Part shown: positions 50,521 to 64,000 of the stretch, piece by piece
Layout: each line of letters starts with the position of its first letter
Numbering within the stretch: position 1 is the stretch's first letter
NCBI GenBank assembly: GCA_044070495.1
Contig: JBIPSI010000019.1
Span: 44,646 to 108,645 of the forward strand
DNA length: 64,000 nucleotides
Origin: Spirulina sp.
GTDB lineage: Bacteria; Cyanobacteriota; Cyanobacteriia; Phormidesmidales; Phormidesmidaceae
Reading direction: 5' to 3'
The notes under the pieces: model-generated
Told to the model about the DNA's origin: nothing
Seen by the model: the letters and a program-made list of their open reading frames with translations, nothing else
Databases searched by the model: none
Program-made: the position numbers and the translations under genes

Positions 50521-52647
50521 GTGAGCCTGAAGGATCTTCGCATTCAGGACGAGTATCGCAGTAGCGAGTGCAATATCGTCAAGGATTTTTACATTCCGTG
50601 CCTGGAGCAGGCCACGGGCTATAGTCGGGCGGTGGGCTATTTTTCTAGCTCATCGATGGCCTGTGTAGCCCAGGGTCTAACGGCGTTTATTCGCTCTGGG
50701 GGACGGATGCGTTTGATCACTTCTCCCCAGCTATCTGAGGAAGATGTGCAGGCGATTGAGCAGGGGCTACAGCAGCGGGAACAGGTGGTTGAGGCGGCGT
50801 TGCGGCGAGAACTGGAGGCTGAGCTACCCCAGGTGATCCAAGACCGTTTGGCGGCGTTGGCCTGGTTGCTGGGCCAAGGGCTTTTGGAGATTAAGCTGGC
50901 GGTGCCTAGGACGTTGCGACGGCGGGGGATTTATCACGAAAAGCTGGGGGTGTTTACGGACGCAGACGGTCATGTGGTGGCGTTTACCGGGTCGGCCAAT
51001 GAAAGCGCCAGTGCGTTGATTGATAATTTTGAATGCCTGGATGTCTTTAGTTCTTGGGATGAGGGGGTGCGGCGGCGGGCGTTGCAGAAGGCCCAAAATT
51101 TTGAGGCGTTGTGGAATGACCAGACCAAGAATGTAGAGGTGATGGCGTTTCCTGATGCGGTGGCGAGGTCGTTACTTCAGTTTTGCCCAACCCAAGCCCC
51201 AACCCAAGAACCTAGGGTTTCTGCGCTAGACGAACACTATGACCTGGAAAACTCGCCACCGGAGTCTCCGCCCCCTGGAATTCCGGCAAGCCCATTTTGG
51301 CTGACACTTCGACCCTACCAGCAGCAGGCCATTGATAACTGGTTTGCTAACAAGGGACGCGGCACCCTGAAGATGGCCACGGGCAGCGGCAAAACCATTA
51401 CAGCTCTAGCAGCGGTGGCACAGCTCTACGAAAAATGCAGAGCTAACAACAAATCCTTGCAGACGTTGCTGATTGTTTGTCCCTATCGCCATCTGGTCAC
51501 GCAATGGGCAACGGAATGCCGCAAGTTTAACCTCGCCCCTATCCTCGCCTTTGACCGGGCCGCCACCTGGCAGGAAACCTTACAAAATCAGTTGGTCGCC
51601 CTATCGGGAGGACGACAACCCTTCGTCACCGTTATCACCACCAATGCCACCCTACGGCAGAATTCGCTGCAATCCCAGCTCTCGTTTTTGCCTCAGCTAG
51701 CGATGATCATTGGTGACGAGGCCCACAACCTAGGGGCCGAGAACCTAGCGGCCTGTCTTCCAGACAATATCCCCCTGCGGCTGGCCCTATCGGCGACCCC
51801 AGAGCGCCACTTTGATCAAGCGGGGACAGAGCGCATCTTCGACTACTTTGGCCCCGTGCTAGAGCCGGAATTTACCCTGCGAGACGCCCTCCAGGCTGGG
51901 GCGCTGGTGCAGTATACCTACACCCCCATGCTGATTGAACTCACCCCGGAGGAGGTGGAGCGCTACGCCGAACTGACCGCAGCCATTGGTCGGGCCATGG
52001 GTATCGGGGGCCGGGACGACAACACGGCCCTAGAACGCCTGCTGTTTGAGCGGGCGAGGCTGATTTGCACCGCCGAAAACAAGCTCACCCAGCTTAGGGC
52101 GTTGATGGAAACGCGGCTCCACAGCGACCACACGCTGTTCTACTGTGGCGATGGCTCAGTGGAAGATGACACCAGCGAGGAAAGCCGCCGCCAACTAGAG
52201 GCGGTGGCCGACTTGCTCAACTATCGCCTGGGCTATAAGGTCGAACCCTACGTGGCCGAAACCAGCCTGACTGAACGGGATGACCTGCGCTACGCCTTTG
52301 AAAAAGGGCATATTAAGGGACTAGTGGCCATTCGGTGTTTGGATGAGGGCATGGATATTCCCGCTATCCAAACCGCTGTGATTTTGGCCAGCAGCAGCAA
52401 CCCGCGCCAGTTCATCCAGCGGCGGGGGCGAATTTTGCGGCCCTCCCCCAATAAACACCAGGCCGAACTGTTTGACATGCTGGTGATACCGCCAGACCTA
52501 GGTGGGGAATATTGGCCCATAGAGCAGCGGATCTTGCGCGGCGAACTGGCCCGCTTTGTGGAATTTGCCGACCTGGCGCTGAATGCCGGGGAAGCCCGTA
52601 AAATTCTGTATCCCCTGCAAGAACGGTACGACTTGTTAGATTTGTGA
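50521..52647 (+). CDS. PLD(HKD)-like domain + SF2 DEAH helicase; 'DNA phosphorothioation system restriction enzyme' type
   Basis: IYHEKLG...FTGSANES; LRPYQ, MATGSGKT, GDEAHN, LSATP, CLDEGMDIP, QRRGRILR. Confidence 0.88.
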   Translation: MSLKDLRIQDEYRSSECNIVKDFYIPCLEQATGYSRAVGYFSSSSMACVAQGLTAFIRSGGRMRLITSPQLSEEDVQAIEQGLQQREQVVEAALRRELEAELPQVIQDRLAALAWLLGQGLLEIKLAVPRTLRRRGIYHEKLGVFTDADGHVVAFTGSANESASALIDNFECLDVFSSWDEGVRRRALQKAQNFEALWNDQTKNVEVMAFPDAVARSLLQFCPTQAPTQEPRVSALDEHYDLENSPPESPPPGIPASPFWLTLRPYQQQAIDNWFANKGRGTLKMATGSGKTITALAAVAQLYEKCRANNKSLQTLLIVCPYRHLVTQWATECRKFNLAPILAFDRAATWQETLQNQLVALSGGRQPFVTVITTNATLRQNSLQSQLSFLPQLAMIIGDEAHNLGAENLAACLPDNIPLRLALSATPERHFDQAGTERIFDYFGPVLEPEFTLRDALQAGALVQYTYTPMLIELTPEEVERYAELTAAIGRAMGIGGRDDNTALERLLFERARLICTAENKLTQLRALMETRLHSDHTLFYCGDGSVEDDTSEESRRQLEAVADLLNYRLGYKVEPYVAETSLTERDDLRYAFEKGHIKGLVAIRCLDEGMDIPAIQTAVILASSSNPRQFIQRRGRILRPSPNKHQAELFDMLVIPPDLGGEYWPIEQRILRGELARFVEFADLALNAGEARKILYPLQERYDLLDL

Positions 52648-52832
52648 TTGATCCCATGACCTCTCCCCCCAACCCCAGCCAGGAAGACATCGAAGCGCCC
52701 ATCACCACGGCTCCCCCAGAAGTTGAGCGGATCATTCGGGAGGTGATTCGGCTGGAGAAGGCCAATTTGTCGAGTGATCGCCCCCGCATTCGGGCCGATG
52801 TGCTCAAGATCATCAAGGACACGATTAAATGA
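52644..52832 (+). CDS. Small helical protein coupled between the helicase and the SMC-like ATPase
   Basis: 62 aa; GTGA overlap with the helicase stop and ATGA overlap with the ATPase start. Confidence 0.7.
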   Translation: MIDPMTSPPNPSQEDIEAPITTAPPEVERIIREVIRLEKANLSSDRPRIRADVLKIIKDTIK

Positions 52833-54880
52833 AGTTGCTATCGCTAAGGCTGTTTAATTTTCGTCAGTTCTGGGGTGAGGTACACCTCGATTTGGCTCAC
52901 CAAAATAGCCACAATGTCACGGTCATCCACGGCAACAATGGGGCGGGCAAAACCACCCTGCTGAATGGCTTTACCTGGGCACTCTACAACCAGCGCAGCC
53001 CTGCCTTTGCCCCTGGCCCTTTGGTGAATAATCGCGCCCTGGGGGAGGTGCCCGTGGGTAGCTTAGTGGAAGGCTGGGTGGAGGTGCTGTTTGAGCACAG
53101 CGGCAAGGAATACCAGGTGCGGCGTTCCTGCGTGGCTCAGAAAGATCCATCTGGGCAAATTGTGGAAGAACCCGGCAGCTTGCAGCTTAAGATCAACGGC
53201 ACGCTGATTACCGAAAAGGACGACATCGAAGATGCCATCGGCAGCGTGTTGCCCAGCAGTTTGCACCGCTACTTTTTCTTTGATGGGGAGCGAATCGAGC
53301 AGATTGTAAAGTCTGAGAACCGGGCGGATATGGCAACGGCCATTAAGACCCTCTTGAGTGTGGAAATGCTGGAGCGGGGCATCAACCACCTGGACTATGC
53401 CCGCAAGCAGCTTGAAAAGGAACTCAGCGCCATTGGCGACACCGAAACCAAGCGGCTGATGGCCGAAAAGAACCGCCGAGAGGAAGAAAAAGCCCAAAAG
53501 GAAACCCGCCGCGAAGCCATTGTGCAAGATTTGCTGGATCAGGAAGACCTGAAGCAGCGCTACAGCGCCCAACTGCGCGATCTAGATCAGGTGAAGGGGA
53601 TTCAGCAGCGGCGCGACGACCTGCAAAGCCAAATGGAAGACCTAGAGCAGCAGTTGGGCCGCAATGAAGACCGTCTGCGGCGGACGATTTCGTCGCGGGG
53701 CTACATGGTGTTTTTAGGCGATACCATTGCCCAATTCAAAGATCTCGCCGCCGACCTGCGCCGCAAGGGAGAACTGCCCGCTGGCATTAAGCGCCAGTTT
53801 GTGCAGGATTTGCTGGATCAAGAAGCCTGTATTTGCGGTGCCCCCCTCACCACGGGCACGGCCAACCGTCGGGAGGTAGAAACCTGGCTGGGCAAGGGGG
53901 GCTTGCAGGATGTGGAGGAGGCCGTGATTAAAATGAGCGGCGAGGTGGAAAGCCTGGAGCGGCAAATCCCGGAATTTTGGGATGAAATTGATCAGGAACA
54001 GGCCAGTATCGAAAATCTGCGGGCTCGGATTAGCAAATTGCAAGACCAAATTAGCGACATCCGCACCCAGCTCAAGGGCAATGAGGATGTAAATGTGCAG
54101 GGCATTGAGCGGCGGCTGGAAGAAACGGAGCAGGCCATTACTGCTCGCCACCGGGAAGATGCGGTGCTGAAGGATGAGATCAAGCGCCTAGAGGAGGCTA
54201 TCGCCGAGGTGGATAAGCAGATCAAGGCCCACGAGGCGAAGGATCAGGAGCAGGCGCGGGTGAAGCGGCAGATCGCAGCGGCCCAGGATGCCATTGCCCG
54301 CCTGAATGAGGTGAAGCACCGGGTAGACCTGAAGTTTCGGGCGGTGCTGGAGGAGAAGGTGCGGGAGATCTTTCGGCGCATTTCCTTTACGCCCTACCTG
54401 CCCCAACTCACCGAAAACTACGAGCTACGGCTGATTGACCCCAACCTAGAGGGCGAGGCCACGGTGGCCGCTTCTACGGGGCAAAACCAGATTCTCAGTC
54501 TGGCCTTTATTGGCAGCGTAATTGACCGGGTACGGGCCTGGAGCAAAAAGCATTCCGCCATTGGGCTAGATGGTGGTGGCTTCCCGATTGTGATGGATTC
54601 GCCCTTTGGTAGCCTCGATTCGGGCAACCGCAGCAACATTGCCAATGCCATTACCGAGCTGTCGGATCAGTTGGTGGTGATGGTGAGCAAAACCCAGTGG
54701 CTAAATGAGGTGGAGCGGGAAATGGAACCCTCCATCGGGGCGGAATATGTGTTGGTTTACCACACGGCCAAGGAGGATGCCGGCCTGGAGGATATGGAGC
54801 GCTATGGTCGCCGCTACCCACTGGTGAAGCGCAGCCCCAATACCTTTACCTGGACGGAGGTGGTGCGGGTGGAGCAGTAG
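52829..54880 (+). CDS. SMC/Rad50-like ABC ATPase with a CxC hook (DndD paralog)
   Basis: GNNGAGKTT, YFFFDGE, coiled coil with central CICG, ASTGQ signature, VMDSPFGSLD. Confidence 0.88.
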   Translation: MKLLSLRLFNFRQFWGEVHLDLAHQNSHNVTVIHGNNGAGKTTLLNGFTWALYNQRSPAFAPGPLVNNRALGEVPVGSLVEGWVEVLFEHSGKEYQVRRSCVAQKDPSGQIVEEPGSLQLKINGTLITEKDDIEDAIGSVLPSSLHRYFFFDGERIEQIVKSENRADMATAIKTLLSVEMLERGINHLDYARKQLEKELSAIGDTETKRLMAEKNRREEEKAQKETRREAIVQDLLDQEDLKQRYSAQLRDLDQVKGIQQRRDDLQSQMEDLEQQLGRNEDRLRRTISSRGYMVFLGDTIAQFKDLAADLRRKGELPAGIKRQFVQDLLDQEACICGAPLTTGTANRREVETWLGKGGLQDVEEAVIKMSGEVESLERQIPEFWDEIDQEQASIENLRARISKLQDQISDIRTQLKGNEDVNVQGIERRLEETEQAITARHREDAVLKDEIKRLEEAIAEVDKQIKAHEAKDQEQARVKRQIAAAQDAIARLNEVKHRVDLKFRAVLEEKVREIFRRISFTPYLPQLTENYELRLIDPNLEGEATVAASTGQNQILSLAFIGSVIDRVRAWSKKHSAIGLDGGGFPIVMDSPFGSLDSGNRSNIANAITELSDQLVVMVSKTQWLNEVEREMEPSIGAEYVLVYHTAKEDAGLEDMERYGRRYPLVKRSPNTFTWTEVVRVEQ

Positions 54881-54925: not shown

Positions 54926-55597
54926 ATGGGGAACGCTATGGTTAGCACGGCACCACAACCCATCGTTACCGATGAATGGGTACCCGCCTCGTGGGTGGAG
55001 TATATGGCGCGGCTAGAATCCGTGGTGCCGCAGGAGGCCCGCTGCTATTTTGATGCCGATTGGATGAGGGTAGAAATGTCGCCCCTGGGTGCGCTCCACG
55101 GACGGGAAAACTCGATTGTTTCGACGCTGGTGGTGCTGTATGCCACGCTGAAGGGTCTGCGCATGGTGGAGCTGACCAACACCACGTTTCGCAAGACGGG
55201 GCTGCAAGAGGCTCAGCCTGATATTGCCTTTTATGTGGGGCAGGGGTTTGATCTGCCGCCACGGGACAACCGACCGATTGATGTGTTGACCCACGGTGCG
55301 CCTCAGTTGGTGATAGAAATTGCCTCGACGACGCTCAATGATGATCTGGGCAAGAAGCGGCTGCTCTATGAACGGCTGGGCGCGGCTGAATATTGGGTGG
55401 TGGATGTGCAGGCGGCCCAGGTGATTGCCTTCGAGATTGCGGATCGCCGCAGTGGGCAAATTACGGAGTCCCAGGTATTGCCCGGTTTGGCGATGACGAC
55501 GCTGGAAATGGCGCTGGAGCGTTCGCAGCATGAGGATGATGCCACCATCACGCGCTGGCTGTTGGAGTTGTTTAGCCACGGCGCACAGGAAGACTAA
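54926..55597 (+). CDS. Uma2 family putative endonuclease
   Basis: AQPDIAFY, PQLVIEIAST, DDLGKKRLLYERLGAAEYWVVDV; start may be 54938. Confidence 0.88.
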   Translation: MGNAMVSTAPQPIVTDEWVPASWVEYMARLESVVPQEARCYFDADWMRVEMSPLGALHGRENSIVSTLVVLYATLKGLRMVELTNTTFRKTGLQEAQPDIAFYVGQGFDLPPRDNRPIDVLTHGAPQLVIEIASTTLNDDLGKKRLLYERLGAAEYWVVDVQAAQVIAFEIADRRSGQITESQVLPGLAMTTLEMALERSQHEDDATITRWLLELFSHGAQED

Positions 55598-55676: not shown

Positions 55677-56126
55677 ATGGCAGATATACGAATTAAGGTT
55701 GCGAAGGATAAGGCGAAGCTGGTAAAGGCGCTACGATCTGGCGAGGGTTCGACCGGGCCGTTTCAGACTTATGCAGATGTAGTGGCTTTTGGTGCAGCTT
55801 TTGGTTTTAGCAAGAGGAAGCGAGTTCCTTTTGATCAAATCTCACGCGGAAATCCTGATCCAATACCAGCCGATCAGTTCAAAAACAGATCACTTATAGA
55901 CTTAATAGCTGTAGCAGAAACTCATGATCCTAATATTCTGAGTAGTATTGACGAGAAGCTTCAGGAAAAGGCAACAATCTTCGAAGAATACGCAAATGGA
56001 GGCTTTGAAATCTTGGAGTCTTACATATCTGGAGTTATTGATGTATCTAAACAAATATTACTACTTGTAAAATCTGGCGAAGTTAAGATTGACTCAGAAG
56101 ACCTTGATGTTTTAAATTTTCTTTAA
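55677..56126 (+). CDS. DNA phosphorothioation-associated protein 4-like
   Basis: RIKVAKDKAKLVKAL...GPFQTYADVVAFGAAFG...IFEEYANGGFEIL; dnd context. Confidence 0.75.
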   Translation: MADIRIKVAKDKAKLVKALRSGEGSTGPFQTYADVVAFGAAFGFSKRKRVPFDQISRGNPDPIPADQFKNRSLIDLIAVAETHDPNILSSIDEKLQEKATIFEEYANGGFEILESYISGVIDVSKQILLLVKSGEVKIDSEDLDVLNFL

Positions 56127-56154
56127 AGCAATCTAAGAAATAAATTAGATAAAC

Positions 56155-56676
56155 TTGAGAGTTCACCAAATACCAAGTCAGCTAGAAATACTTTCGTACT
56201 ACTCTAAGAGATTTCAGAGAATTCGAGTAGATCGTGCTCATGGTATTGCACCTCATAAGCCATTGTTATTGCTCTCAGTTATCGAAATGATCTCTCATAA
56301 GGAGATTCAGGAGAACAAGATCTACTTGTCAAGTGAACTAATCCAGAAGTTCCTTAAGTATTGGAGCTATTTAGGCTCAGAATCCCATCATCCTGATATT
56401 TCGCGGCCATACTTCCATATGAGAAGCGGAAAATTTTGGCATCTCATGGCAAATCCAGGTTACGAAAATGTCATTTCTTCTAAAGTGAAATTAAAAACTT
56501 TCTTTGAGGTTAAACGAAGCATTGAATATGCTTATCTTGACGAGGATTTATTTGATCTTATGAATATTAGTAAATACAGAGAGAGTTTATTATCTGTTCT
56601 GGTAGGCCAGTGGTTTCCTGGCAGATTAGACGAGGTTATGAGTATTGCAGAAACCAATCTTTTTAGCGAAGAATAA
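56155..56676 (+). CDS. Stand-alone sulfur-binding-domain (SBD)-like protein
   Basis: APHKPLLLLSVI...RPYFHMRS.KFWHL...YAYLDEDLF; no nuclease domain; AT-rich. Confidence 0.65.
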   Translation: MRVHQIPSQLEILSYYSKRFQRIRVDRAHGIAPHKPLLLLSVIEMISHKEIQENKIYLSSELIQKFLKYWSYLGSESHHPDISRPYFHMRSGKFWHLMANPGYENVISSKVKLKTFFEVKRSIEYAYLDEDLFDLMNISKYRESLLSVLVGQWFPGRLDEVMSIAETNLFSEE

Positions 56677-56699
56677 TTGCGACAGGTTGAATCAGCTTT

Positions 56700-57671
56700 A
56701 TGGAAAAGAATCTTGCTTACTATGCAAGTAAACTTAGAGGGCTTCGAGTTAATACTAACAAAGGAGTTACACCATATCAACCGCTATTGCTTTTGGCAGT
56801 TATGGAACTGGTCGGACAGCAATATATCTCAGAAAACAAGATATACCTAACTCCAGAATTAATTTCAATATTTGTGAAATATAGAAGTCAACTAAGCCCG
56901 GCACATTATCAAGCTGATTTAGCGCAACCCTTTTTCTTCATGAGTAAAATAAATGAACCTTTTTGGCACTTAAAGCCAAAGTTGGGCCAGGAAGCTGTCT
57001 TAAATTCTGGAACAAGACTTAACACAATTCCTTTACTAAGAAGAAATATTGAATATGCGTATTTAGATGTAGAGTTATTTGGTTATCTTCAAGCTCCTAT
57101 ATCCAGAAATTCTTTAATATCAGTTTTGGTAGAAAAATGGTTCTCAGATCAGCCTAGGCGAATTGAAAAACTCATGGGTGTTAACCCTTTTCAAAAATTT
57201 TCATACTCACAATCTGAGGAGCATCGTCAGTTACCTCTTGTTAGTGAGCTAGATGCAGTAAAGCCCTATGAGGCAATAGAAACAGTACGAGATGCTACTT
57301 TTAGAAAAAATATAGTGAAGCTGTACGATAATAGGTGTGCATTTTGCCAATTAAGAATCATTGCAGGTGATGAAACTAACATTGTTGATGGAGCGCATAT
57401 TAAACCGTTCTCAAAATTCAAAGATGATAGCTACACAAATGGCATTTCTCTCTGTAAAAACCATCATTGGGCTTTTGATCATGGGTGGTTTAGCCTTGAT
57501 CAGGAATATCGAATACTAATTCGAGAGAATTGGATTAGTGAAAATGCACCTTCAAATATTAAAGCGATGAGTGAGTATCATCTTGAGAGTATTTTCTTGC
57601 CTCATGATGAAGAATTTTTGCCTGATCAAAATGCCTTAGCTTGGCATCGTGAGAACTGGCATATTGCATAG
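56700..57671 (+). CDS. SBD-like + HNH endonuclease (modification-dependent restriction type)
   Basis: TPYQPLLLLAV...QPFF...FWHL...YAYLD; RDATFR...YDNRCAFC...DGAHIKPF...NGISLCKNHHWAFDHG. Confidence 0.82.
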   Translation: MEKNLAYYASKLRGLRVNTNKGVTPYQPLLLLAVMELVGQQYISENKIYLTPELISIFVKYRSQLSPAHYQADLAQPFFFMSKINEPFWHLKPKLGQEAVLNSGTRLNTIPLLRRNIEYAYLDVELFGYLQAPISRNSLISVLVEKWFSDQPRRIEKLMGVNPFQKFSYSQSEEHRQLPLVSELDAVKPYEAIETVRDATFRKNIVKLYDNRCAFCQLRIIAGDETNIVDGAHIKPFSKFKDDSYTNGISLCKNHHWAFDHGWFSLDQEYRILIRENWISENAPSNIKAMSEYHLESIFLPHDEEFLPDQNALAWHRENWHIA

Positions 57672-57899
57672 TCAAGTTTCATTGCCTAAGTACAAATCAG
57701 CAAAAGTCTTTGCCGCTTCAGGGTTCAACGTTTTTAGTGCCCTAACAATTTCAACCACCGTTTCCGCTGTTGGGTCGCGCTTCTCATTCACCCAGCGGTA
57801 AACATTATTGCGTTCCACATCCATCGCCACCGCCAAGGCAAACTGGCTGATGCTGTAATCCTCTAGAACCTGTTTCAGCGCTTGTCCTGCTTTTCCCAT
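57672..57899 (-). CDS. XRE-family helix-turn-helix transcriptional regulator
   Basis: LKQVLEDYSISQFALAVAMDVERNNVYRWVNEKRDP. Confidence 0.85.
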   Translation of the reverse strand: MGKAGQALKQVLEDYSISQFALAVAMDVERNNVYRWVNEKRDPTAETVVEIVRALKTLNPEAAKTFADLYLGNET

Positions 57900-57936
57900 G
57901 CGTCCATGGTTTCAGAGAATCACCCATCTAGACACA

Positions 57937-58002
57937 TCCTAGTGGTTGACAGTCAACCTTTAGGCAGGCTAGACTGCATCACATCGTCCTAGTGGTTGAC
58001 AG
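57937..58002. promoter_or_regulatory. Putative operator/promoter between the divergent XRE gene and its partner
   Basis: 16-bp direct repeat TCCTAGTGGTTGACAG at 57937-57952 and 57987-58002; palindrome GGTTGAC-A-GTCAACC at 57944-57958; contains TTGACA. Confidence 0.65.
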
Positions 58003-58005
58003 ATT

Positions 58006-58299
58006 ATGCAAACCCCCACCGCCCGCTACAGCACCCGCCTCACCAGTCCCGACCCCGTCCACCTAGAACTCACCCTCAAACTCCACACCTACCCCCACCC
58101 CGACCGCGAACCCGTTAAAATTCTCATCATCGGCAGTAAACCCGCCGTTAGCTCCATCGTCGTGGCCCTACATCAGCTTGGCTTTGCCGAAATCTTTGAA
58201 TGGACGGACTTCCTCAGCGCCCCCAATGCCGATAGACCGTTGCAGTTTCAGCCCTATGAGGTCATGAAAGCTCTCATAAAGTATTTACCTAAAAATTAA
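58006..58299 (+). CDS. Hypothetical protein divergent from the XRE regulator
   Basis: 97-aa ORF, ILIIGS...LHQLGFAEIFEW. Confidence 0.65.
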   Translation: MQTPTARYSTRLTSPDPVHLELTLKLHTYPHPDREPVKILIIGSKPAVSSIVVALHQLGFAEIFEWTDFLSAPNADRPLQFQPYEVMKALIKYLPKN

Positions 58300-58312
58300 T
58301 CATGAAAGCTAA

Positions 58313-58603
58313 ATCAGGAGGTTTTCCGGTGACGGGAAAATTTACAGGAACGTTATCAGAGTGGTTGATATTTCTAAAATGTCTACCAGAGGTGTTGTAG
58401 ATGTCATCGTACTAGGTTGGAATCCTAACATTTCCATAGAACTATCACTAGCATTGGTTCGTGAGTGGATCTCTGATTTCGAGCCTACAGAAGGTTGCCG
58501 CCTGATTGCAAAAGTAAATATTAGTGCTGAGAAACTAGAAGATTTGTATCTTACTGATTTTGAGAGAGCGATTGAACCGGAAGAAATTGATAAATTTAGA
58601 TGA
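58313..58603 (+). pseudogene. Probable 3' fragment of an unidentified gene
   Basis: AT-rich frame open from 58313 (YRNVIRVVDI...VIVLGWNP...AKVNISAEKLEDLYLTDFE) with no convincing start; abuts the dndC-like remnant. Confidence 0.4.
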
Positions 58604-58976
58604 CTCTCTTTCTGCCATCTACCACGAAATCACTGGCGAAAAATTCCACGATCCCCGTGCCACCGCCGACACCACCACCCTCAGCCCCGACGAATGGGCC
58701 ATCCTAGAAACCCTCTGCAACGACGACCCCATGTATCTCGAACTCGTCGCCAAACTCCTCGACACCGAACGCAAATATCAAACCATGAGCCGCCGCACCG
58801 GAATCTACAAAGCCCTCCAAACCTGCTTTGAAACCAGCGCCCTCGCCAAAGCCCCCGCCATCCAACGCGCCGAAACCATCCGTACCCTCAAACAAGCCGA
58901 AGAAAACGGCGACATCGATACCTTTCAAAATGCTTGGGCCAACCTGAAGTTTGGGCAAAGGGGAGAAAGAACGTGA
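58596..58976 (+). pseudogene. dndC: C-terminal remnant of the DNA phosphorothioation sulfurtransferase DndC
   Basis: DDSLSAIYHEITGEKFHDPR...DEWAILETLC...LELVAKLLDTERKYQTMSRRTGIY...CFETS resembles cyanobacterial DndC C-termini as recalled; lies upstream of dndD; no PAPS-reductase domain. Confidence 0.65.
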
Positions 58977-59024: not shown

Positions 59025-59225
59025 ATGTTGATTCAGAAAATCGTGCAAGAACTGCAAGGCATCCCCGAAGACAAGCTAGAAGAACTCTTCGACCTCATCC
59101 ACTACTTCCGTTTGGGCCTAGCCAACGAGGCATCCCAACCCCGCAGCCCCGGTCTTCTCCCCGGACAACTCAGCGATACCTTCTTTGACCCCCTCCCAGA
59201 AGAGGAACTTCAACAGTGGGAATAA
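59025..59225 (+). CDS. Antitoxin (DUF2281/VapB-like)
   Basis: IPEDKLEELFDLIHYFR...PGLLPG..SDTFFDPLPEEEL; overlaps the PIN gene. Confidence 0.75.
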   Translation: MLIQKIVQELQGIPEDKLEELFDLIHYFRLGLANEASQPRSPGLLPGQLSDTFFDPLPEEELQQWE

Positions 59226-59611
59226 CCTACCTACTCGATACCCACATTTTGCTGTGGTGGATCTTCAACGATTCAAAGCTAGACGAGACGTGCCGCACCA
59301 TTATCGCCAACCCTAGCCATCGCATCCTCGTCAGCAGCGCCTCGGCCTGGGAAATTGCCACCAAACATCGCATTGGCAAATTACCAGAGGCTAAAACCCT
59401 AGTCGCTACCTATTCAGAGACTCTGAACCGCGCTAATTTTGAAGAACTTGCCATCACCGCCAAACATGCCCTAAGAGCCGGAGGGCTGCCCATCGCCCAT
59501 CGCGACCCCTTTGATCGTATGCTGATGGCCCAAGCAGAACTAGAAAATATCCCTATCATCACCTACGATCCAGCCTTCCAGACTGGTTTCATTCAAGTGA
59601 TTCCCAGGTAG
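59216..59611 (+). CDS. vapC: VapC family PIN-domain toxin
   Basis: YLLDTHILLW, SASAWEIATK, HRDPFDRMLMAQA, ITYD. Confidence 0.9.
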   Translation: MGITYLLDTHILLWWIFNDSKLDETCRTIIANPSHRILVSSASAWEIATKHRIGKLPEAKTLVATYSETLNRANFEELAITAKHALRAGGLPIAHRDPFDRMLMAQAELENIPIITYDPAFQTGFIQVIPR

Positions 59612-59631
59612 TAGGGTGGGCACTGCCCACC
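59611..59631 (+). repeat. REP-like palindrome
   Basis: GTAGGGTGGGCACTGCCCACC at the vapC stop. Confidence 0.85.
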
Positions 59632-59727
59632 ACCTAGCTAGGAAAGTCCTCCCTGTTGATTGCCCTCCCCAAAGAGGAAGCGTGTAGAACCTTGTTACGG
59701 TAGATAAGTAGACTTGAGGTGTAAGCC

Positions 59728-59994
59728 ATGACATTACAAGAACTACAACAACAGATGACCCAGCTAACGGTGCAGGATCGCCTGCAACTCGTGCAAATTT
59801 TAATTGCCTCGATTCAACAAGACACCCAAGACTTTCAAGCAGCCAACCCTAATCAACCCCAGGATGAGACTACCCTTGACGCAGACTTAGTCAACCTCCA
59901 TCCTTGGACAAAAAGCTTCATCGGTATTCTGCAACAACCCCTCGATGATAACAAAGAGACTTACATTGACTATCTAGAGGAGAAATACGCTTGA
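59728..59994 (+). CDS. Putative antitoxin
   Basis: 88 aa ending YIDYLEEKY; TTGA overlap with the following PIN gene. Confidence 0.7.
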   Translation: MTLQELQQQMTQLTVQDRLQLVQILIASIQQDTQDFQAANPNQPQDETTLDADLVNLHPWTKSFIGILQQPLDDNKETYIDYLEEKYA

Positions 59995-60413
59995 AAAAAG
60001 TATTATTTGACAGCGATGTTTTGCTAGATGTTCTACTGAATCGCCATCCCTTCATAATAGACTCGGCCCAGGCATTGAATGTTGTTGCAACCGAAAAGGT
60101 AAAAGGATATCTCTCTGGGCACGCCGTTACTAACCTTTACTACATTATGCGTCGCCAGCTTAATAGCAACGTAGCCCATGAAAAGTTAAGTCAATTGCTG
60201 CAACGCATTCAGGTAGCTAGTGTAACGGATAGCGTGATTCGAGCCGCATTACAAAATTCAATGACTGATTTTGAAGATGCCGTCACTAGCGAAGCAGCTC
60301 ATGCCACCCAGATAGACCTGATCGTAACTCGAAATATCTCAGACTTTGAGAAGTCTCCTACCCCTGCTGTTCTGCCAGGTAAGCTAGTTGAAATATTGTC
60401 AAATGAAGTCTGA
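59991..60413 (+). CDS. PIN-domain toxin
   Basis: VLFDSDVLLD, DFEDAV, IVTRNISDF. Confidence 0.88.
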   Translation: MKKVLFDSDVLLDVLLNRHPFIIDSAQALNVVATEKVKGYLSGHAVTNLYYIMRRQLNSNVAHEKLSQLLQRIQVASVTDSVIRAALQNSMTDFEDAVTSEAAHATQIDLIVTRNISDFEKSPTPAVLPGKLVEILSNEV

Positions 60414-60486
60414 TTCTCTGGCAATGAAACCTATCGGTTAGAATGTCAGACCAGTGAAATAGCTACAATGGGAAAGAGCAAAGAGG

Positions 60487-60678
60487 ATGGCAATCCGCAT
60501 GGAAATACGCGATCACCAAATCCTGAAGGAGTTTTCTGCCAACGTGCGCCAGCAATTTCCTGATGCACAAATTTGGGCCTTTGGCTCACGGGCAAGGGGT
60601 AATGCTCAGTTTGAGTCTAGCCCTTATAAGGCCAGTCCTCTGGTTCACAGCATCCTTGCAGAAGGCATTGCCGCATGA
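60487..60678 (+). pseudogene. Minimal nucleotidyltransferase (MNT) with an internal deletion
   Basis: IWAFGSRARG is present but the DxD motif and core are missing; ends SPLVHSILAEGIAA; 63 aa. Confidence 0.6.
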
Positions 60679-61052
60679 GTCAGCCTATCAACCAGCCATC
60701 AGCTAATTTAGCGACTCTACCCGCCATTCGCGAAATCATGGATCGGTCTGCTAAAATTGCTGAGATTTGCCAGCATAACCAAGTTGCTCGCCTAGAACTC
60801 TTTGGTTCTGCCGTCACCACAGCCTTCGACCCTGCTACCAGCGACCTAGATTTTTTGGTAGAGTTTTCTACCGACATTCCCGAAGGTGCATCGGAACGCT
60901 TTTTTGGACTCAAACAAGGTCTGTCCGAAATTTTAGGCCGTAGCATTGACCTAATTGAAGTAAACACCATTCAAAATCCTTACTTTCTTCGAGCCATTTC
61001 TAATAACCGATTAACCATCTATGGAAACCGAAATCCAGAAGTATCTGTATGA
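60675..61052 (+). CDS. MNT nucleotidyltransferase antitoxin (MntA-like)
   Basis: LELFGSAV...SDLDFLVEF...GRSIDL. Confidence 0.85.
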   Translation: MSQPINQPSANLATLPAIREIMDRSAKIAEICQHNQVARLELFGSAVTTAFDPATSDLDFLVEFSTDIPEGASERFFGLKQGLSEILGRSIDLIEVNTIQNPYFLRAISNNRLTIYGNRNPEVSV

Positions 61053-61365
61053 CATTCAAAAATCCTGTGAGTTTATCGGTGAATTTACAGATGGCCAAGA
61101 TTTTGAAGGTTATCGAAATAATCGCCTCCTAAAATCTGCCGTAGAGCGTCAGTTTATCACCATTGGTGAAGCATTGAATCAAGCGATTAGGCGTAATCCA
61201 GACCTAGTTTCATATATTTCTAATACCCGTAAGATCATTGATTTCCGTAACCTTCTGACCCATCAATATGGTGCTGTTTCAGATGCCGTTGTTTGGGATA
61301 TTATCCAAACTAACCTACCTAAACTTATGGATGAAGTGACTCAACTCTTGGGTGCAGCATTATGA
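61021..61365 (+). CDS. HEPN/DUF86 (HepT-like) RNase toxin
   Basis: AVERQFITIGEA, FRNLLTHQY (RxxxxH), VWDII. Confidence 0.88.
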   Translation: METEIQKYLYDIQKSCEFIGEFTDGQDFEGYRNNRLLKSAVERQFITIGEALNQAIRRNPDLVSYISNTRKIIDFRNLLTHQYGAVSDAVVWDIIQTNLPKLMDEVTQLLGAAL

Positions 61366-63332
61366 TCTTCCTCGAACTCACCCTAGAAAACGTTGGTCCC
61401 TACCACGGTCGCCATACCCTCAACCTGCGCCCCCAAGACGGTCGCCCCATCATCCTCATCGGTGGGCTAAATGGCGGTGGCAAAACCACCCTGATGGATG
61501 CCCTACGCCTCGCCCTCTACGGCCAACGCGCCCACATTGACCGCCGTCGCAACCTAGCCTATGCCGACTTTTTGGCCCAGTGCATCAACAACCAGGCCGC
61601 CCCCGAATCCAGCGCCGCCGTCGAACTAACCTTTGAGCGTGTGATCTACATCAGCGGCATCGAAAAGCTGGGGCAAGTGCGGGTACGGCGCACCTGGCAA
61701 CGAGGCACAAAAGACACTCTTACCATCGAGCTAGACGGCTGGCCCAACGAATACCTCACCCAAAACTGGGATGAGCAGGTCGAAGATTGGCTACCCCTGG
61801 GGCTTTCTAACCTATTTTTGTTTGATGGCGAACAGGTTAAAGCTTTGGCCGAGCAAGACACCCCACCCCCCAGCGTGGTCAGCGCCATTCGGGCCGTGTT
61901 GGGCCTAGAACTAGCGGATCGCCTTGCCAACGACCTGGCGGTTTTGGTCAGCCGCAAACGGGCCGAACTCGGCGACACCGCCGCCCAGCAACAGGTCGAT
62001 AGCCTGCGCCACCAGATCACCCAGGTCGATCTCGATTTAGCCTCGGAAGCCAACCTCCTCGAACAGCACGAAGCCAACCTGAAAGCCGCCGAAACGGCCC
62101 TCAGCGAGGCTGAAGACCGCTTTTTTGCCGGGGGCGGGCACATCACCGAACAGGCCGAACCCCTTCAGCAGCAAGTCAAAACCTGGCGCACTGAGATCAA
62201 AATTCAAACCCAAGCCCTCCATGACCTAGCGGCCTCAGCCTTGCCCTTGGCCATGGTTCAGAATTTGCTGATGGCCGGAGCCGCCCAGGGGCAACGGGAA
62301 CAAGCCCAGCAAAAAGCCGACATTGCCCGCGAAGCCCTCCTTGACCACGACCAGCGCCTCTTAGATCTGCTGGGCCAGCTTAAGCTCAAACCAACCCAGC
62401 AGCAAAAAATCCAGGCGTTTATCCAGCAAGAAACCCAAAGCCTCAGCCCCATTGCCAGCGCTGAACCCTGGCTGGCAGCCTCCGACGACAGCTTGGCTCA
62501 GCTCAGCCATATGCTTCAGCACCAGATCGCCACCGAGCAACACCTCACCCGCACCCACATCAACACCCTGCAACGGCTTAACGACGACATCGATGCCCAA
62601 GAAGCCAAGCTTGCCAAGGCAGCCTCCGCCGAAGATTACGAAGCCCTCAAGTCGGCCCGTAGTGCGGCCAAAACCCATTTACAAGAATGCCAGATGACCC
62701 TAGAAATCCATCGTCGCCGCTATGGTGAGTTAGAACGGCAGCGGCAAACCCTCCAGAAAAGCCTGAGCCGCCACGGCAACGACGCCATCGCCGAAAGCCA
62801 GACCCACATTTTGCTAGAAACCGCCCCCAGGGTGCAGGCCACCCTCACCGCCTTCCAGGAAAAATTGACCGAGAAAAAACTAGCCACCCTAGAAACCCAA
62901 GTCACCCAATACTTCAAACTGCTGCTGCACAAGGCCAGCCTGGTCAGCCAGGTGATGATTGATCCCACCACCTTTCGGCTTGATCTCTACGACACCGAAG
63001 GCTCCCCGCTCCCCATTCAACGCCTCTCTGCCGGAGAAAAGCAGCTTCTTGCTATTGCCTTCCTCTGGGGCTTAGCCAGTACCTCCGGGAAGCAACTTCC
63101 GGTGGCCATCGATACCCCCCTCGGACGGCTCGACTCCGAACACCGCAACCACCTAGTCGATCGCTACTTTCCCCAAGCCAGCCACCAGGTCATCCTGCTC
63201 TCTACCGATACCGAAATTCGCGCCGAAGAAGTGGAGCGATTGCGAGAGGCAGAGGCCATTGCCCGTGAGTATTTGCTGGAGTACGATCCAAAGCAGCGGC
63301 AGACTGCCGTGGTATCGGGGTATTTCTGGTAA
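61362..63332 (+). CDS. dndD: DNA sulfur modification protein DndD
   Basis: GGLNGGGKTT, LFLFDGEQ, LSAGEKQLLAIAFLWGL, IDTPLGRLDSEHR, SHQVILLSTDTEI, terminal GYFW. Confidence 0.92.
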   Translation: MIFLELTLENVGPYHGRHTLNLRPQDGRPIILIGGLNGGGKTTLMDALRLALYGQRAHIDRRRNLAYADFLAQCINNQAAPESSAAVELTFERVIYISGIEKLGQVRVRRTWQRGTKDTLTIELDGWPNEYLTQNWDEQVEDWLPLGLSNLFLFDGEQVKALAEQDTPPPSVVSAIRAVLGLELADRLANDLAVLVSRKRAELGDTAAQQQVDSLRHQITQVDLDLASEANLLEQHEANLKAAETALSEAEDRFFAGGGHITEQAEPLQQQVKTWRTEIKIQTQALHDLAASALPLAMVQNLLMAGAAQGQREQAQQKADIAREALLDHDQRLLDLLGQLKLKPTQQQKIQAFIQQETQSLSPIASAEPWLAASDDSLAQLSHMLQHQIATEQHLTRTHINTLQRLNDDIDAQEAKLAKAASAEDYEALKSARSAAKTHLQECQMTLEIHRRRYGELERQRQTLQKSLSRHGNDAIAESQTHILLETAPRVQATLTAFQEKLTEKKLATLETQVTQYFKLLLHKASLVSQVMIDPTTFRLDLYDTEGSPLPIQRLSAGEKQLLAIAFLWGLASTSGKQLPVAIDTPLGRLDSEHRNHLVDRYFPQASHQVILLSTDTEIRAEEVERLREAEAIAREYLLEYDPKQRQTAVVSGYFW

Positions 63333-63402
63333 AGGGTGGTGAGAGGGTGAGGATGGTGGGGGAGTGAGGATGGTGGGGTGGGGTGGATGGTGGGGGAGTG
63401 GG
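63333..63402 (+). repeat. Degenerate G-rich short tandem repeats (GGGTGAGGA/GGATGGTGGGG)
   Basis: AGGGTGGTGAGAGGGTGAGGATGGTGGGGGAGTGAGGATGGTGGGG... Confidence 0.75.
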
Positions 63403-63801
63403 TTAGGGTTTGGCGGGGTTGGGGACTGTCCAGGCTTTGGAGTTTCGGGTGAGGTTGATGAGCATACCGATGATGCGGTCGTAGGTTTTGAGGAGGTTTG
63501 CTCCGGTGGTTGCATCCAGATACTGACAACGAATGGCAAAGTGAATCCAGGTCTGGGTTTCTGCAGCTTCAGCCGTAGAATCCGATAGCTTGGCCACGAA
63601 GGAAGCTTCATAAATGCGCTTTCGCCATGCTTCAGCCAAATTGGCACAAATAGAGCGAGAAGACCGCCGAATTTGATCAGTCAGTGAATATCGCTCTTCG
63701 ACCGGGAATTTTCTAGACAGCTCAAAAATCTGCATCGCTGCTTCAAAGGCAACCTGATAAATCTCCAAATCCTCATGCCGCCGCACCACCCCGTTGTCCA
63801 T
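63403..63801 (-). CDS. Four-helix-bundle protein (23S rRNA IVS protein / TIGR02436-like)
   Basis: HEDLEIYQ...FPVEERYSLTDQIRRSSRSICANLAEAW...EAAETQTW. Confidence 0.9.
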   Translation of the reverse strand: MDNGVVRRHEDLEIYQVAFEAAMQIFELSRKFPVEERYSLTDQIRRSSRSICANLAEAWRKRIYEASFVAKLSDSTAEAAETQTWIHFAIRCQYLDATTGANLLKTYDRIIGMLINLTRNSKAWTVPNPAKP

Positions 63802-63848
63802 CTCAACTCACCCTTCCCTAGACACCCCCCCCTATCATTCCCACCCTT

Positions 63849-64000
63849 CTCACCCCCCTCACCCTCCTCACCCCCCTCACCTTCCTCACCCCCCTCACCC
63901 TCCTCACCCCCCTCACCCTCCTCACCACCCTCACCCTCCTCACCCCCCTCACCCTCCTCATCACCCTCACCCTCCTCACCACCCTCACCCTCCTCACCAC
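63849..64000 (+). repeat. 9-bp tandem repeat array (CTCACCnyC)n, about 17 units, continuing past the window edge
   Basis: Alternating CTCACCCCC/CTCACCCTC units with variants (18-bp higher-order period). Confidence 0.95.

Follow-up and report, generated by a model that had tools for sequence, protein, structure and literature searches.

A composite Dnd/Pbe island in a cyanobacterium that combines a DndC tail, a short DndC paralogue and a pair of sulfur-binding domain proteins

The 64,000-nucleotide stretch of cyanobacterial DNA analyzed here (the window) contains, at positions 55677 to 58976, the middle of a composite Dnd and CxC/Pbe defence island. The catalytic part of canonical DndC has been lost, but the tail of the enzyme is kept, as are a short paralogue of DndC (sDndC) and a pair of proteins with sulfur-binding domains (SBD), and the locus is therefore better described as a rearranged writer-plus-reader island than as a proven switch to reading only. 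Composite islands of such layout are common in filamentous cyanobacteria.

Layout of the island

The genes are arranged in the following order, with positions given for the window or, where so marked, for the adjoining contig C5.

50521-52647, + strand: PbeA, HKD (PLD-like) nuclease fused to an SF2 helicase (PADLOC PbeA E 1.3e-243; Pfam PLDc_2, ResIII, Helicase_C)
52644-52832, + strand: small PbeB-like protein of 62 aa, overlapping PbeA on one side and PbeC on the other
52829-54880, + strand: PbeC, CxC-type DndD-like ABC ATPase (PADLOC PbeC E 6.6e-240)
54926-55597, + strand: gene for a Uma2-family nuclease, an insertion separating PbeC from PbeD (Pfam Uma2 E 2.7e-26)
55677-56126, + strand: PbeD, dnd-associated protein 4 (TIGR04062 129.9 bits, cut-off 74.25)
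56155-56676, + strand: SBD1, stand-alone sulfur-binding domain protein, 173 aa (PDB 8H0L (SBDHga), E 8.1e-22)
56700-57671, + strand: SBD-HNH nuclease, 323 aa, variant-cavity subtype (8H0L E 1.1e-10, residues 5-148; Pfam HNH_2 E 2.4e-11)
57672-57899, - strand: XRE-type HTH protein, convergent with SBD-HNH at zero spacer (Pfam HTH_3 E 7.4e-06)
58006-58299, + strand: o97, conserved 97-aa protein that precedes dndC in relatives
58300-58595, no strand: AT-rich 296-nt insert (GC 0.39) holding ORF 58361-58603
58596-58976, + strand: DndC C-terminal domain, small ORF of ~125 codons (DndC models match at their C-terminal ends only)
59216-61365, + strand: three toxin-antitoxin-like modules between DndC remnant and dndD (PIN; antitoxin and PIN_3; MNT and HepT; Pfam PIN E 2.9e-18, PIN_3 E 2.3e-23, NTP_transf_2 E 4.9e-10, HepT-like E 5.6e-19)
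61362-63332, + strand: DndD, intact (TIGR03185 604.5 bits over positions 1-650, cut-off 245.85)
63403-63801, - strand: four-helix-bundle protein of the 23S rRNA intervening-sequence type in the dndD-dndE gap (Pfam 23S_rRNA_IVP E 1.7e-30)
63842-63998, no strand: 18-nt tandem array of 8.7 copies (TRF) with which the contig ends; C5 opens with the same 18-nt unit
C5:84-473, + strand: dndE (TIGR03184 123 bits)
C5:589-1146, + strand: Uma2 gene following dndE
C5:1150-2352, - strand: sDndC, 400-aa short DndC paralogue with a PAPS-reductase domain

The preliminary description of this DNA had rightly called dndD intact; PbeA, PbeB and PbeC upstream as well as dndE and sDndC beyond the window end had been overlooked. 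PbeA scores slightly below the cut-off of TIGR04095 (581.7 bits, cut-off 600). The PbeB-like protein, 95% identical in the related genome G012, gave no family match in PADLOC, NCBIfam-type and Pfam profile searches, and its role was assigned by position, after section 16 of PMC10853773. PbeC contains a CIC motif (residues 334-336) that is absent from DndD, and reaches only 136.6 bits with the DndD model TIGR03185, below its cut-off. The Uma2 gene between PbeC and PbeD occupies the same position in G012 and G024. PbeD has been named as the CxC system's cognate of DndE (PMC10853773); BLASTP revealed no similarity to the DndE of the window genome itself. For o97, profile searches returned no family match and the protein atlas only cyanobacterial hypothetical clusters. 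The order dndE-Uma2-sDndC after the array is the same on single contigs in relatives.

The AT-rich cassette for SBD and HNH proteins reported earlier is borne out by a GC content of 0.35-0.37 at 56000-57500 compared with 0.56-0.62 in the flanks and by the 8H0L and HNH_2 matches. Two of the SBD-like proteins claimed there stand, SBD1 and SBD-HNH, while 55677-56126 encodes PbeD, and the segment 56155-57671, formerly treated as one unit, consists of two ORFs.

A truncated dndC, an AT-rich insert and interspersed Uma2 and toxin-antitoxin genes could also be taken for signs of an inactive remnant, and many related loci are eroded: of 19 loci with the SBD cassette, 11 have dndD only in part or not at all, and dndE is often lost too. 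Such decay is nevertheless very improbable for the present island, in which all genes except the DndC remnant are intact open frames and dN/dS lies at 0.04-0.36 for every gene tested, remnant included (0.04-0.09 for the HTH protein, which is 82-92% identical in relatives; 0.06-0.26 for o97). The values for DndD (0.11-0.12, versus G012 and G011), DndE (0.06-0.09) and sDndC (0.04-0.08) were computed between species that share the dndC truncation, and these three genes have stayed under strong purifying selection after it.

The DndC remnant and the short DndC paralogue

Profile searches confirmed the earlier assignment of 58596-58976 to the C-terminus of DndC. The matches comprise positions 367-446 of 447 in TIGR03183 (56.6 bits, cut-off 290.4), 378-490 of 505 in NF005316 and 377-472 of 481 in the PADLOC DndC model; Pfam gave no PAPS-reductase match for this ORF. 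Against a full-length DndC from a cyanobacterium, the remnant aligns with residues 395-524 at 62% identity. Its ORF (58560-58976) lacks an ATG start and offers TTG as a possible one at 58560, 58572 and 58587; the corresponding position in G024 reads GTA. Of the proposed fusion to an unrelated fragment, about 11 unrelated codons before the DndC homology remain, while the 80-codon ORF upstream (58361-58603) is in a different frame. Neither the rest of the genome nor any of the fetched loci holds another copy of the 296-nt insert, and it is missing from the junctions of four relatives. The insert is covered by a metagenome contig spanning 58138-58566 (X6 record 25), and the truncation junction of the window genome is real, as it is bridged by another (X1 record 7, 58481-58631). 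Directly downstream of o97 lies a full dndC in G018 and the remnant in G012, G011, G024 and G048; the latter four have one o97-tail junction in common, which is also seen in metagenome contigs. The catalytic core of canonical dndC was removed by a deletion predating the split of several Nodosilinea species.

With open frames of 137-145 codons in five species and dN/dS of 0.17-0.36 in ten of ten species pairs (bootstrap upper bounds 0.35-0.70), the remnant is kept under purifying selection and is not junk. In E. coli B7A DndC, DndD binds residues 433-482 and the last helix, and L458D/E462A/R471A abolish binding, as stated in the part of PMC12193691 drawn on here. The invariant motif of the cyanobacterial DndC tail, kept in the window remnant, fits the spacing L-x3-E-x8-R, a mapping onto E. 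coli DndC that was made by motif spacing and not by aligning that sequence. Structure prediction for a full-length relative, of high confidence (pLDDT 91, pTM 0.89), shows the DndC tail as an all-helical block from residue 407. By homology, the remnant matches the published DndD-docking region of DndC, the part that is missing from sDndC.

A profile search of the window genome yielded no second canonical DndC copy. The reported absence of dndB from the interval holds for the whole genome, which is 97% complete and has no DndB match anywhere. The suggested search for dndC and dndE elsewhere did uncover dndE together with sDndC on contig C5. Apart from one CysH-like gene, sDndC is the only gene in the genome with a PAPS-reductase domain. 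The protein aligns with residues 42-411 of canonical DndC, contains the motifs SGGKDS, FRWC and GCxxC and is of full length (~400 aa) in relatives. Since it scores below the DndC cut-off (134 bits, cut-off 290), retains three of the four Fe-S cysteines (the fourth has no counterpart in the pairwise alignment) and is devoid of the docking tail, it may do something other than DndD/DndE-directed phosphorothioation (PT). Among 36 sDndC-bearing genomes, 19 have an intact sDndC without full-length DndD.

The SBD pair and its relation to dndC

SBD1 and the SBD of the nuclease are 41% identical. At the positions of the SBDHga cavity residues H25, K26, L75, P76 and H79, SBD1 has H, K, R, P and H, that is four of five are kept, and PHK is invariant in all 19 aligned SBD1 sequences (window's included). 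SBD-HNH has Y, Q, Q, P and F instead, with the central proline kept, a subtype encountered in six of 19 aligned SBD-HNH sequences; the HNH motif is invariant in all 19 (window's included in both counts). A TagI HNH match extends over residues 193-273; profile searches found no SAD(SRA) domain, and the stretch linking the SBD to the HNH domain matched nothing.

The variant cavity bears the possibility that no PT logic is left in the island. DndD-DndE capped by the DndC tail would then be a DNA-scanning pair for a non-PT task, the variant SBD would read a non-sulfur feature or just bind DNA, and sDndC, with its score under the DndC cut-off, would make a different modification. Many DndD-DndE pairs occur without PT genes and other modifications have been suggested for them (PMC10853773, in the sections considered). 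We hold this to be improbable in light of the conserved cavity of SBD1, the proline retained in the nuclease SBD, and the DndC-specific FRWC loop and Fe-S cysteines of sDndC.

The preliminary description had put forward a switch from writer to reader: PT writing would have been lost with the DndC core, SBD-HNH and SBD1 would form a PT-dependent type IV nuclease directed against PT-modified incoming DNA, and dndD, dndE and the tail would persist as scaffold or for another task. The truncation of the sole canonical dndC and the lack of a docking tail in sDndC agree with this, as does the behavior of characterized enzymes of the SBD-HNH and SBD-nuclease types, which cleave PT-DNA and exert restriction on dnd clusters (PMC7461809 and PMC10602919, in the portions used). 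Within islands of the sDndC type, an intact canonical dndC remains in two of 19 SBD-cassette loci versus ten of 17 cassette-less ones (Fisher p 0.004, uncorrected for relatedness), the lesions being stop codons, internal deletions and a tail-only remnant. Among seven phylogenetically independent pairs, dndC and the cassette opposed each other in ~4.6 and agreed in 0.1 (median p 0.06). Loss of dndC, and often of dndD and dndE, in cassette-bearing islands of the sDndC type is the outcome expected of a conflict between reader and writer. One relative, G024, is reader-only: it keeps PbeD-SBD1-SBD-HNH-HTH-o97-remnant, its dndD is in pieces, and neither dndE nor sDndC was found there.

A general incompatibility of PT-dependent nucleases with dndC, on which the switch had been founded, is contradicted by a class sample of 401 cyanobacterial genomes, in which the SBD-HNH and DndC lists were compared by hand. 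SBD-HNH was matched in 91 genomes (near full length without stops in 74) and full-length canonical DndC in 56. The latter is present in 26 of the 74 genomes with intact SBD-HNH versus 30 of 327 others (odds ratio 5.4), and in 22 of these 26 the two genes are at most 7 kb apart on one contig. A DndC-family gene of any kind accompanies SBD-HNH in 45/74 genomes versus 44/327 others (Fisher test), the remaining 29 of the 74, which favor PT loss, having none. Among sDndC-bearing genomes of the sample, an intact canonical dndC is again rarer with SBD-HNH (3/17) than without (10/19; p 0.04); sDndC itself is enriched with SBD-HNH, which is present in 17/36 sDndC-bearing genomes versus 57/365 others. 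G018, from the window's own genus, possesses SBD-HNH plus full dndC, dndD, dndE and sDndC; in G332 PbeA-PbeC-PbeD-SBD-HNH-DndC-DndD-DndE all lie on one strand, and co-linear arrays exist in G052, G300 and G354. The cassette had been said to sit in the place of dndB and 5'-dndC. Some relatives do have dndB-dndC in the slot from PbeD to the HTH gene, but the SBD1/SBD-HNH pair is a resident module of such islands and no stand-in for these genes. Together with the persistent selection on dndD, dndE and sDndC and an intact PbeA-D set, a system that relies on a self mark according to the literature as far as covered, these observations leave the switch only partly supported and rather unlikely.

Proposed function and known systems

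The explanation we prefer, tentatively and at a little less than an even chance, is that SBD-HNH serves as the restriction or effector arm of an island that still marks its own DNA and is not a classical type IV enzyme in an unmodified host. sDndC, which retains the PP-loop, the DNA 'specificity loop' motif and three of four Fe-S cysteines, would be the only sulfur-inserting enzyme left and would work without the DndD-docking route. The DndC tail may still serve DndD-DndE, e.g. as cap or adaptor. SBD1 with its canonical cavity and the nuclease SBD with its variant one would read the mark and steer or restrain the HNH nuclease.

The nuclease resembles the SBD-HNH PT-dependent endonucleases (SprMcrA, EcoWI; NF045808) and the SBD of Hga (8H0L) in its N-terminal SBD, C-terminal HNH and invariant HNH motif. 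It differs from SprMcrA/EcoWI in its low NF045808 score (84.4 bits, cut-off 180), its cavity, its stand-alone SBD paralogue as partner and its location within a dnd/pbe island instead of a dnd-free host, a dnd-linked setting given for <3.6% of predicted PT-dependent enzymes in the part of the Xu laboratory's work used here (PMC7461809). In 698 taxa, Rakesh, Aravind and Krishnan (2024, PMC10853773 section 17) described nucleases composed of wHTH(SBD), SAD(SRA) and HNH inside Dnd loci. The window shares with these a nuclease with a PT-reading wHTH domain, a 'mix and match' neighborhood of DndD-DndE and CxC-DndE and flanking HEPN and PIN genes, and departs from them by the missing SAD(SRA), the extra stand-alone SBD and the canonical DndC cut to its tail; in the sections of that paper considered, no mention of the short DndC paralogue was found.

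The dndCDEA-pbeABCD system (Xiong et al. 2019, PMC6459918, as far as used here), equivalent to the CxC ABC-ATPase system, likewise has PbeA (HKD and SF2 helicase), a small PbeB, a CxC-motif PbeC and PbeD adjoining dnd genes. The window version, in contrast, is bacterial (cyanobacterial), carries the SBD/SBD-HNH module after PbeD and has neither an intact canonical DndC nor a dedicated DndA. Compared with E. coli B7A DndC of the DndCDE complex (PMC12193691, same part), the remnant corresponds to the C-terminal helical DndD-binding surface and sDndC to the catalytic core with PP-loop, specificity loop and Fe-S cysteines. Unlike in E. coli, the two halves differ in ancestry and are encoded separately on opposite strands, ~6 kb plus an unassembled repeat gap apart; the cores of sDndC and canonical DndC are 25-27% identical, and neither remnant nor sDndC reaches the family cut-off.

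Anatomy of the island across the contig break

Contig C19, and with it the window, stops inside an 18-nt tandem array, and an identical array begins contig C5 of the same genome. Since relatives show the same gene order on single contigs, the join between C19 and C5 is sound, apart from the length of the repeat.

Features of the island (on C19 unless C5 is stated)
Upstream part of the island: PbeA, HKD nuclease plus SF2 helicase
PbeB-like ORF of 62 aa, assigned from position and conservation only
PbeC, with a CIC motif at residues 334-336, hallmark of the CxC ABC-ATPase clade
49194-49757: Uma2-family nuclease gene
54926-55597: Uma2-family nuclease gene
55677-56126: PbeD (TIGR04062)
56155-57671: SBD cassette, that is the stand-alone sulfur-binding-domain protein SBD1 (173 aa) and the nuclease SBD-HNH (323 aa)
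58596-58976: C-terminal piece of canonical DndC (the remnant or tail), in ORF 58560-58976
60487-60678 and 60675-61052: overlapping ORFs (60487-61052), each matching the nucleotidyltransferase (MNT) family
61362-63332: dndD
63347-63400 and 63842-63998: tandem arrays
63403-63801, minus strand: four-helix-bundle gene between the two arrays
C5, past the array: dndE (TIGR03184, 123 bits)
C5:589-1146: Uma2-family nuclease gene
C5:1150-2352, opposite strand: sDndC, a DndC paralogue of about 400 aa

The preliminary description had proposed a dnd island possibly switched from writing to reading phosphorothioates (PT), and several of its observations on gene content were confirmed: dndD is intact (604.5 bits versus a cut-off of 245.85), no DndB match exists across the genome (97% complete), and the stretch called AT-rich has a GC content of 0.35-0.37 over 56000-57500. 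Searched for genome-wide, dndE was found on C5, canonical dndC occurred in truncated form and dndB not at all. With regard to a dedicated dndA, all six cysteine-desulfurase-like matches (best 437.9 bits) stay below the cut-off of 480.

Three Uma2 genes are dispersed in the island; PbeC and PbeD enclose one of them, and a second separates dndE from sDndC. The arrays flanking the four-helix-bundle gene consist of 17-18-nt units and are apparently mutual reverse complements; it is the right-hand one that breaks the assembly. The MNT pair points to an antitoxin gene, duplicated or frameshifted, that precedes a HepT toxin gene. The related genome G012 carries the island in two copies (L018 on G012:C2, and G012:C31) with identical sDndC and DndC-tail matches, and in the copy examined PbeC is broken by ~750 nt. 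Promoter and terminator scans gave signals at or below shuffled expectation.

The DndC tail and the short DndC paralogue

The stretch 58596-58976 is homologous to the DndC C-terminus, as had been proposed: profile matches cover positions 367-446 of 447 in TIGR03183, 378-490 of 505 in NF005316 and 377-472 of 481 in the PADLOC DndC model, and a PAPS_reduct match is absent. The proposed fusion to an unrelated fragment had to be abandoned, as the upstream 80-codon ORF is not in frame with the remnant. At 56.6 bits the remnant ORF does not reach the canonical TIGR03183 cut-off of 290.4; the PP-loop/Fe-S catalytic domain is missing and homology begins at about residue 405 of a 530-aa DndC. Complementary matches, at model positions 16-360 on C5 and 367-446 in the window, prompted the idea of one dndC split by inversion. 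This was ruled out, because the C5 protein belongs to a full-length family of ~400 aa (frames of 400-412 aa with 82-93% identity in same-genus relatives) and the break points are without inverted repeats. Judged from the sequences, the remnant derives from a separate canonical dndC and not from sDndC.

Comparison with relatives documents the origin of the truncation. In G018 a conserved 97-aa ORF (o97) is followed by a full dndC of 544 aa; four relatives (G012, G011, G024 and G048) carry a truncation as here, with the stop of o97 abutting a shared C-terminal DndC piece. In the present genome the remnant has ~5 extra DndC codons and is separated from o97 by a unique AT-rich insert of 296 nt, of which no further copy was found. 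Metagenome contigs from other samples recover both junction types and span the truncation junction, which excludes an assembly artefact. Within the genus (53 genomes surveyed) four genomes encode full canonical DndC and five the tail only, in open frames of 137-145 codons. o97 itself matched no family, and the protein atlas returned hypothetical cyanobacterial clusters only.

The tail is under purifying selection, with dN/dS values of 0.17-0.36 in all ten pairs from five species (bootstrap upper bounds 0.35-0.70). Six of these pairs share one junction, so that their divergence postdates the deletion and the purifying values hold there, too. At the homologous start position three of four relatives have GTG or TTG (GTA in G024), and the present genome has TTG codons slightly upstream of it. 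Plain decay of the island, which the truncated dndC might bring to mind, is very improbable beside this selection on the fragment that was left.

What the tail may do is indicated by its place in DndC. A full-length cyanobacterial DndC model built from 68 sequences (pLDDT 91, pTM 0.89; it replaced an 11-sequence model of pLDDT 51) shows an all-helical block at residues 407-522, and residues 395-524 of the modelled relative are 62% identical to the remnant. According to the available text of PMC12193691, the part of E. coli B7A DndC that is bound by DndD comprises residues 433-482 together with the last helix (AlphaFold3 models backed up by pull-downs), and L458D/E462A/R471A in B7A DndC abolish DndD binding. 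The L-x3-E-x8-R spacing of these residues fits an invariant motif of cyanobacterial tails which is kept in the remnant, the mapping onto B7A being by motif spacing only. On the basis of this homology and motif the remnant is read as the predicted DndD-docking domain of DndC that has persisted as an independent protein of 126 aa. Sub-threshold matches to Pfam Sp-DndD (tail 21.2 and full DndC 20.1 bits, cut-off 27.2) serve as a lead only. A fold search with the DndC model matched only PAPS/APS-reductase-like and TtuA-like cores and sequence searches of the PDB found no DndC, so that the tail fold is without a solved counterpart here. Elsewhere, stand-alone tails amounted to 13 small proteins, all close relatives (57-100% identity), in a search that depends on shared words and that distant tails may escape.

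sDndC aligns to residues 42-411 of full-length DndC, and the two therefore cover complementary parts of the protein; nothing in sDndC extends beyond canonical residue ~425, that is, it has no docking tail. It scores 134.1 bits, short of the DndC cut-off of 290.4, and retains the PP-loop SGGKDS, the GCxxC pair and the G-x-G-x-P-x-P-x3-FRWC loop, whose FRWC-type counterpart in DndC is the DNA specificity loop in the available text of PMC12193691. An equivalent of the fourth Fe-S cysteine did not align in the pairwise alignment. sDndC is strongly conserved (dN/dS 0.04-0.08) and, together with a single CysH-like gene, makes up the entire set of PAPS-reductase-domain genes in the genome. Matches of the sDndC type occur in 36 of 401 sampled cyanobacterial genomes, and since 19 of the 36 have no full-length DndD, sDndC is independent of DndD. 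Membership in the Pbe module was considered and rejected: PbeA occurs in 107 of the 401 genomes, some of them without sDndC, and about one third of the sDndC genomes have no PbeA match, hence the link is not obligatory. A full-text search of the Dnd literature included, no description of a short DndC paralogue was found; supplementary tables may list one. In the Allocoleopsis/Waterburya-type loci L084 and L086-L089 a PbeD-like gene immediately precedes sDndC in the same orientation, a gene order that hints at a pairing of sDndC with a DndE cognate.

The SBD proteins and the association of reader and writer

The SBD-like proteins described for the AT-rich stretch proved to be two in number, 55677-56126 being PbeD and not an SBD; 56155-57671 is not a single unit and comprises two genes. 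Both are homologous to the solved SBDHga (PDB 8H0L; E = 8.1e-22 for SBD1 and 1.1e-10 for SBD-HNH), their SBDs are 41% identical, and the HNH nuclease reported for the cassette is borne out by an HNH_2 domain in the second ORF (E = 2.4e-11). The sulfur cavity of SBDHga is formed by H25, K26, L75, P76 and H79 (PMC10602919, in the available text). At these positions SBD1 carries H, K, R, P and H and the nuclease's SBD carries Y, Q, Q, P and F, the central proline being retained in both. This variant subtype occurs in six of 19 aligned SBD-HNH sequences, the present one included, and the other 13 are canonical; the HNH motif does not vary among the 19. That no PT logic at all is left in the island, as the altered cavity of the nuclease might suggest, appears quite improbable next to the cavity residues of SBD1 and the conserved motifs of sDndC. 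A complex prediction for SBD-HNH with SBD1 (score 0.00, mark 0.32) weighs neither for nor against binding. In most related loci the GC content of the SBD cassette is below that of its own locus. Contigs of metatranscriptome X18 match 56285-56468 and 57157-57396, contigs from an RNA library not being proof of transcription. SBD-HNH and an XRE HTH gene are convergent with zero bases between their stop codons (57671/57672), and where dndCDE has been lost, sDndC and the HTH gene share a strand, at a distance of ~470 nt.

A general incompatibility of reader and writer, as implied by the proposed switch, was not borne out across cyanobacteria; the reversed sign inside sDndC-type islands would fit a conflict within that family. 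In the class sample of 401 genomes, 74 encode a near-full-length SBD-HNH without stops and 56 a full canonical DndC. Both occur together in 26, in 22 of them within 7 kb, compared with full DndC in 30 of the 327 genomes without intact SBD-HNH (odds ratio 5.4); genomes of this sample are related to one another, so that its p-values overstate the significance. Co-linear arrays run PbeA-PbeC-PbeD-SBD-HNH-DndC-DndD-DndE in G332 and DndB-SBD-HNH-DndC-DndD-DndE in G300. Our findings agree with PMC10853773 (available text), where 698 taxa are listed with nucleases of this kind in their Dnd loci, and contrast with the available text of PMC7461809, which puts this setting at under 3.6% of predicted PT-dependent enzymes. 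Decay runs in both directions: SBD-HNH is decayed beside intact dndC in G447 (a remnant with seven stops) and broken in G420, and dndC is broken or reduced beside intact SBD-HNH in G106, G343 and G204.

Inside sDndC-type islands the sign is reversed. Among the best 80 of 248 sDndC loci, 37 extend at least 8 kb past sDndC, or 36 after removal of a same-genome duplicate; of the 19 that carry the SBD cassette, two (L054, L042) have an intact canonical dndC, versus ten of the 17 without it. Two genes were rescored as broken (L053 with two stops; L102 with one stop and the first 60 residues missing), and L103 was scored dndC-negative, its dndC lying upstream of sDndC, outside the counted side. Out of seven phylogenetically independent pairs, ~4.6 had dndC going the opposite way, compared with 0.1 for the same direction (median p 0.06). 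The sDndC-bearing genomes of the class sample, which stem from the same species pool and are therefore not an independent replicate, gave three of 17 with intact dndC in the presence of SBD-HNH versus ten of 19 in its absence (p 0.04). Seven of the ten cassette-free loci with intact dndC have dndB upstream of it, and in other cassette-free loci GmrSD-, AIPR- or MORC-type genes follow PbeD. From these counts it is plausible that the SBD cassette conflicts with the DndB/DndC writer; the same pattern could also arise if alternative cassettes replace one another at a single position, or from redundancy with sDndC. In L030, L033, L035, L064, L077 and L096 the slot after PbeD, occupied by SBD1/SBD-HNH in the present island, holds GmrSD-type (DUF262/DUF1524) nucleases, AIPR, a MORC-like HATPase or an O-methyltransferase, and thus has the look of an exchangeable effector position.

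Explanations and relation to known systems

The data show how the island is built, how old the deletion is, that tail, dndD, dndE and sDndC are under selection, and that SBD-HNH is linked in genomes with DndC-family genes. The joint explanation we consider best, held tentatively and with not quite even confidence, is that the tail would still bind DndD, that sDndC would be the remaining sulfur-inserting enzyme, and that the SBD pair would read the resulting mark and direct or restrain the HNH nuclease. The reader-only state of the preliminary description, with which the loss of canonical dndC in cassette-bearing islands is consistent and against which the conserved sDndC has to be weighed, is unlikely, though it deserves to be kept in mind. 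A wider reading is more speculative and rather doubtful: sDndC, an XRE regulator, stand-alone SBD and SBD-HNH would constitute an undescribed DndD/DndE-independent module of filamentous cyanobacteria, in which sDndC, alone or jointly with the CxC/Pbe pair, would write a backbone mark to be read by the SBD proteins. Wherever the module becomes established, canonical DndB/DndC would turn incompatible or dispensable and be repeatedly inactivated, and in Nodosilinea the DndD-docking tail alone would persist as a selected mini-protein of ~13 kDa keeping DndD-DndE usable.

PT-reading nucleases are commonly portrayed as opponents of PT-writing systems. In this locus and its relatives the relation depends on context: across cyanobacteria the reader nuclease accompanies the writer, and in one family of islands the canonical writer enzyme has repeatedly been lost in loci with the reader cassette. 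The tail may represent a natural, selected stand-alone version of the DndC region mapped as DndD-binding surface in published pull-downs, and sDndC, which persists without DndD in about half of its carrier genomes, may be a simpler sulfur-inserting enzyme. Cultured strains of a single genus cover several states of the island, which makes its logic directly testable: Nodosilinea nodulosa PCC 7104 has SBD-HNH together with a full dndC, Nodosilinea sp. FACHB-131 has dndB-dndC and lacks the SBD cassette, Nodosilinea sp. LEGE 06152 shares the present truncation, and G024 stands for a reader-only type.

Compared with known systems, the island departs from a DndBCDE(A) writer cluster in having no dndB and a truncated canonical dndC next to dndD and dndE. 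Against NF045808, the model of SBD-HNH PT-dependent enzymes, its nuclease scores 84.4 bits over positions 20-281 of 284 and does not reach the cut-off of 180. Type IV logic would call for a host without a writer of the recognised mark; here canonical DndC is absent and sDndC, DndD and DndE are present under selection. A PT-reading nuclease within dnd/pbe islands is already published. As far as the literature was searched, a selected stand-alone DndD-docking tail, a short DndC paralogue outliving DndD and a reader-writer association changing sign by context are apparently new. With its HKD+SF2 PbeA, small PbeB, CxC-type PbeC and PbeD, the island corresponds to the PbeABCD (CxC) system.
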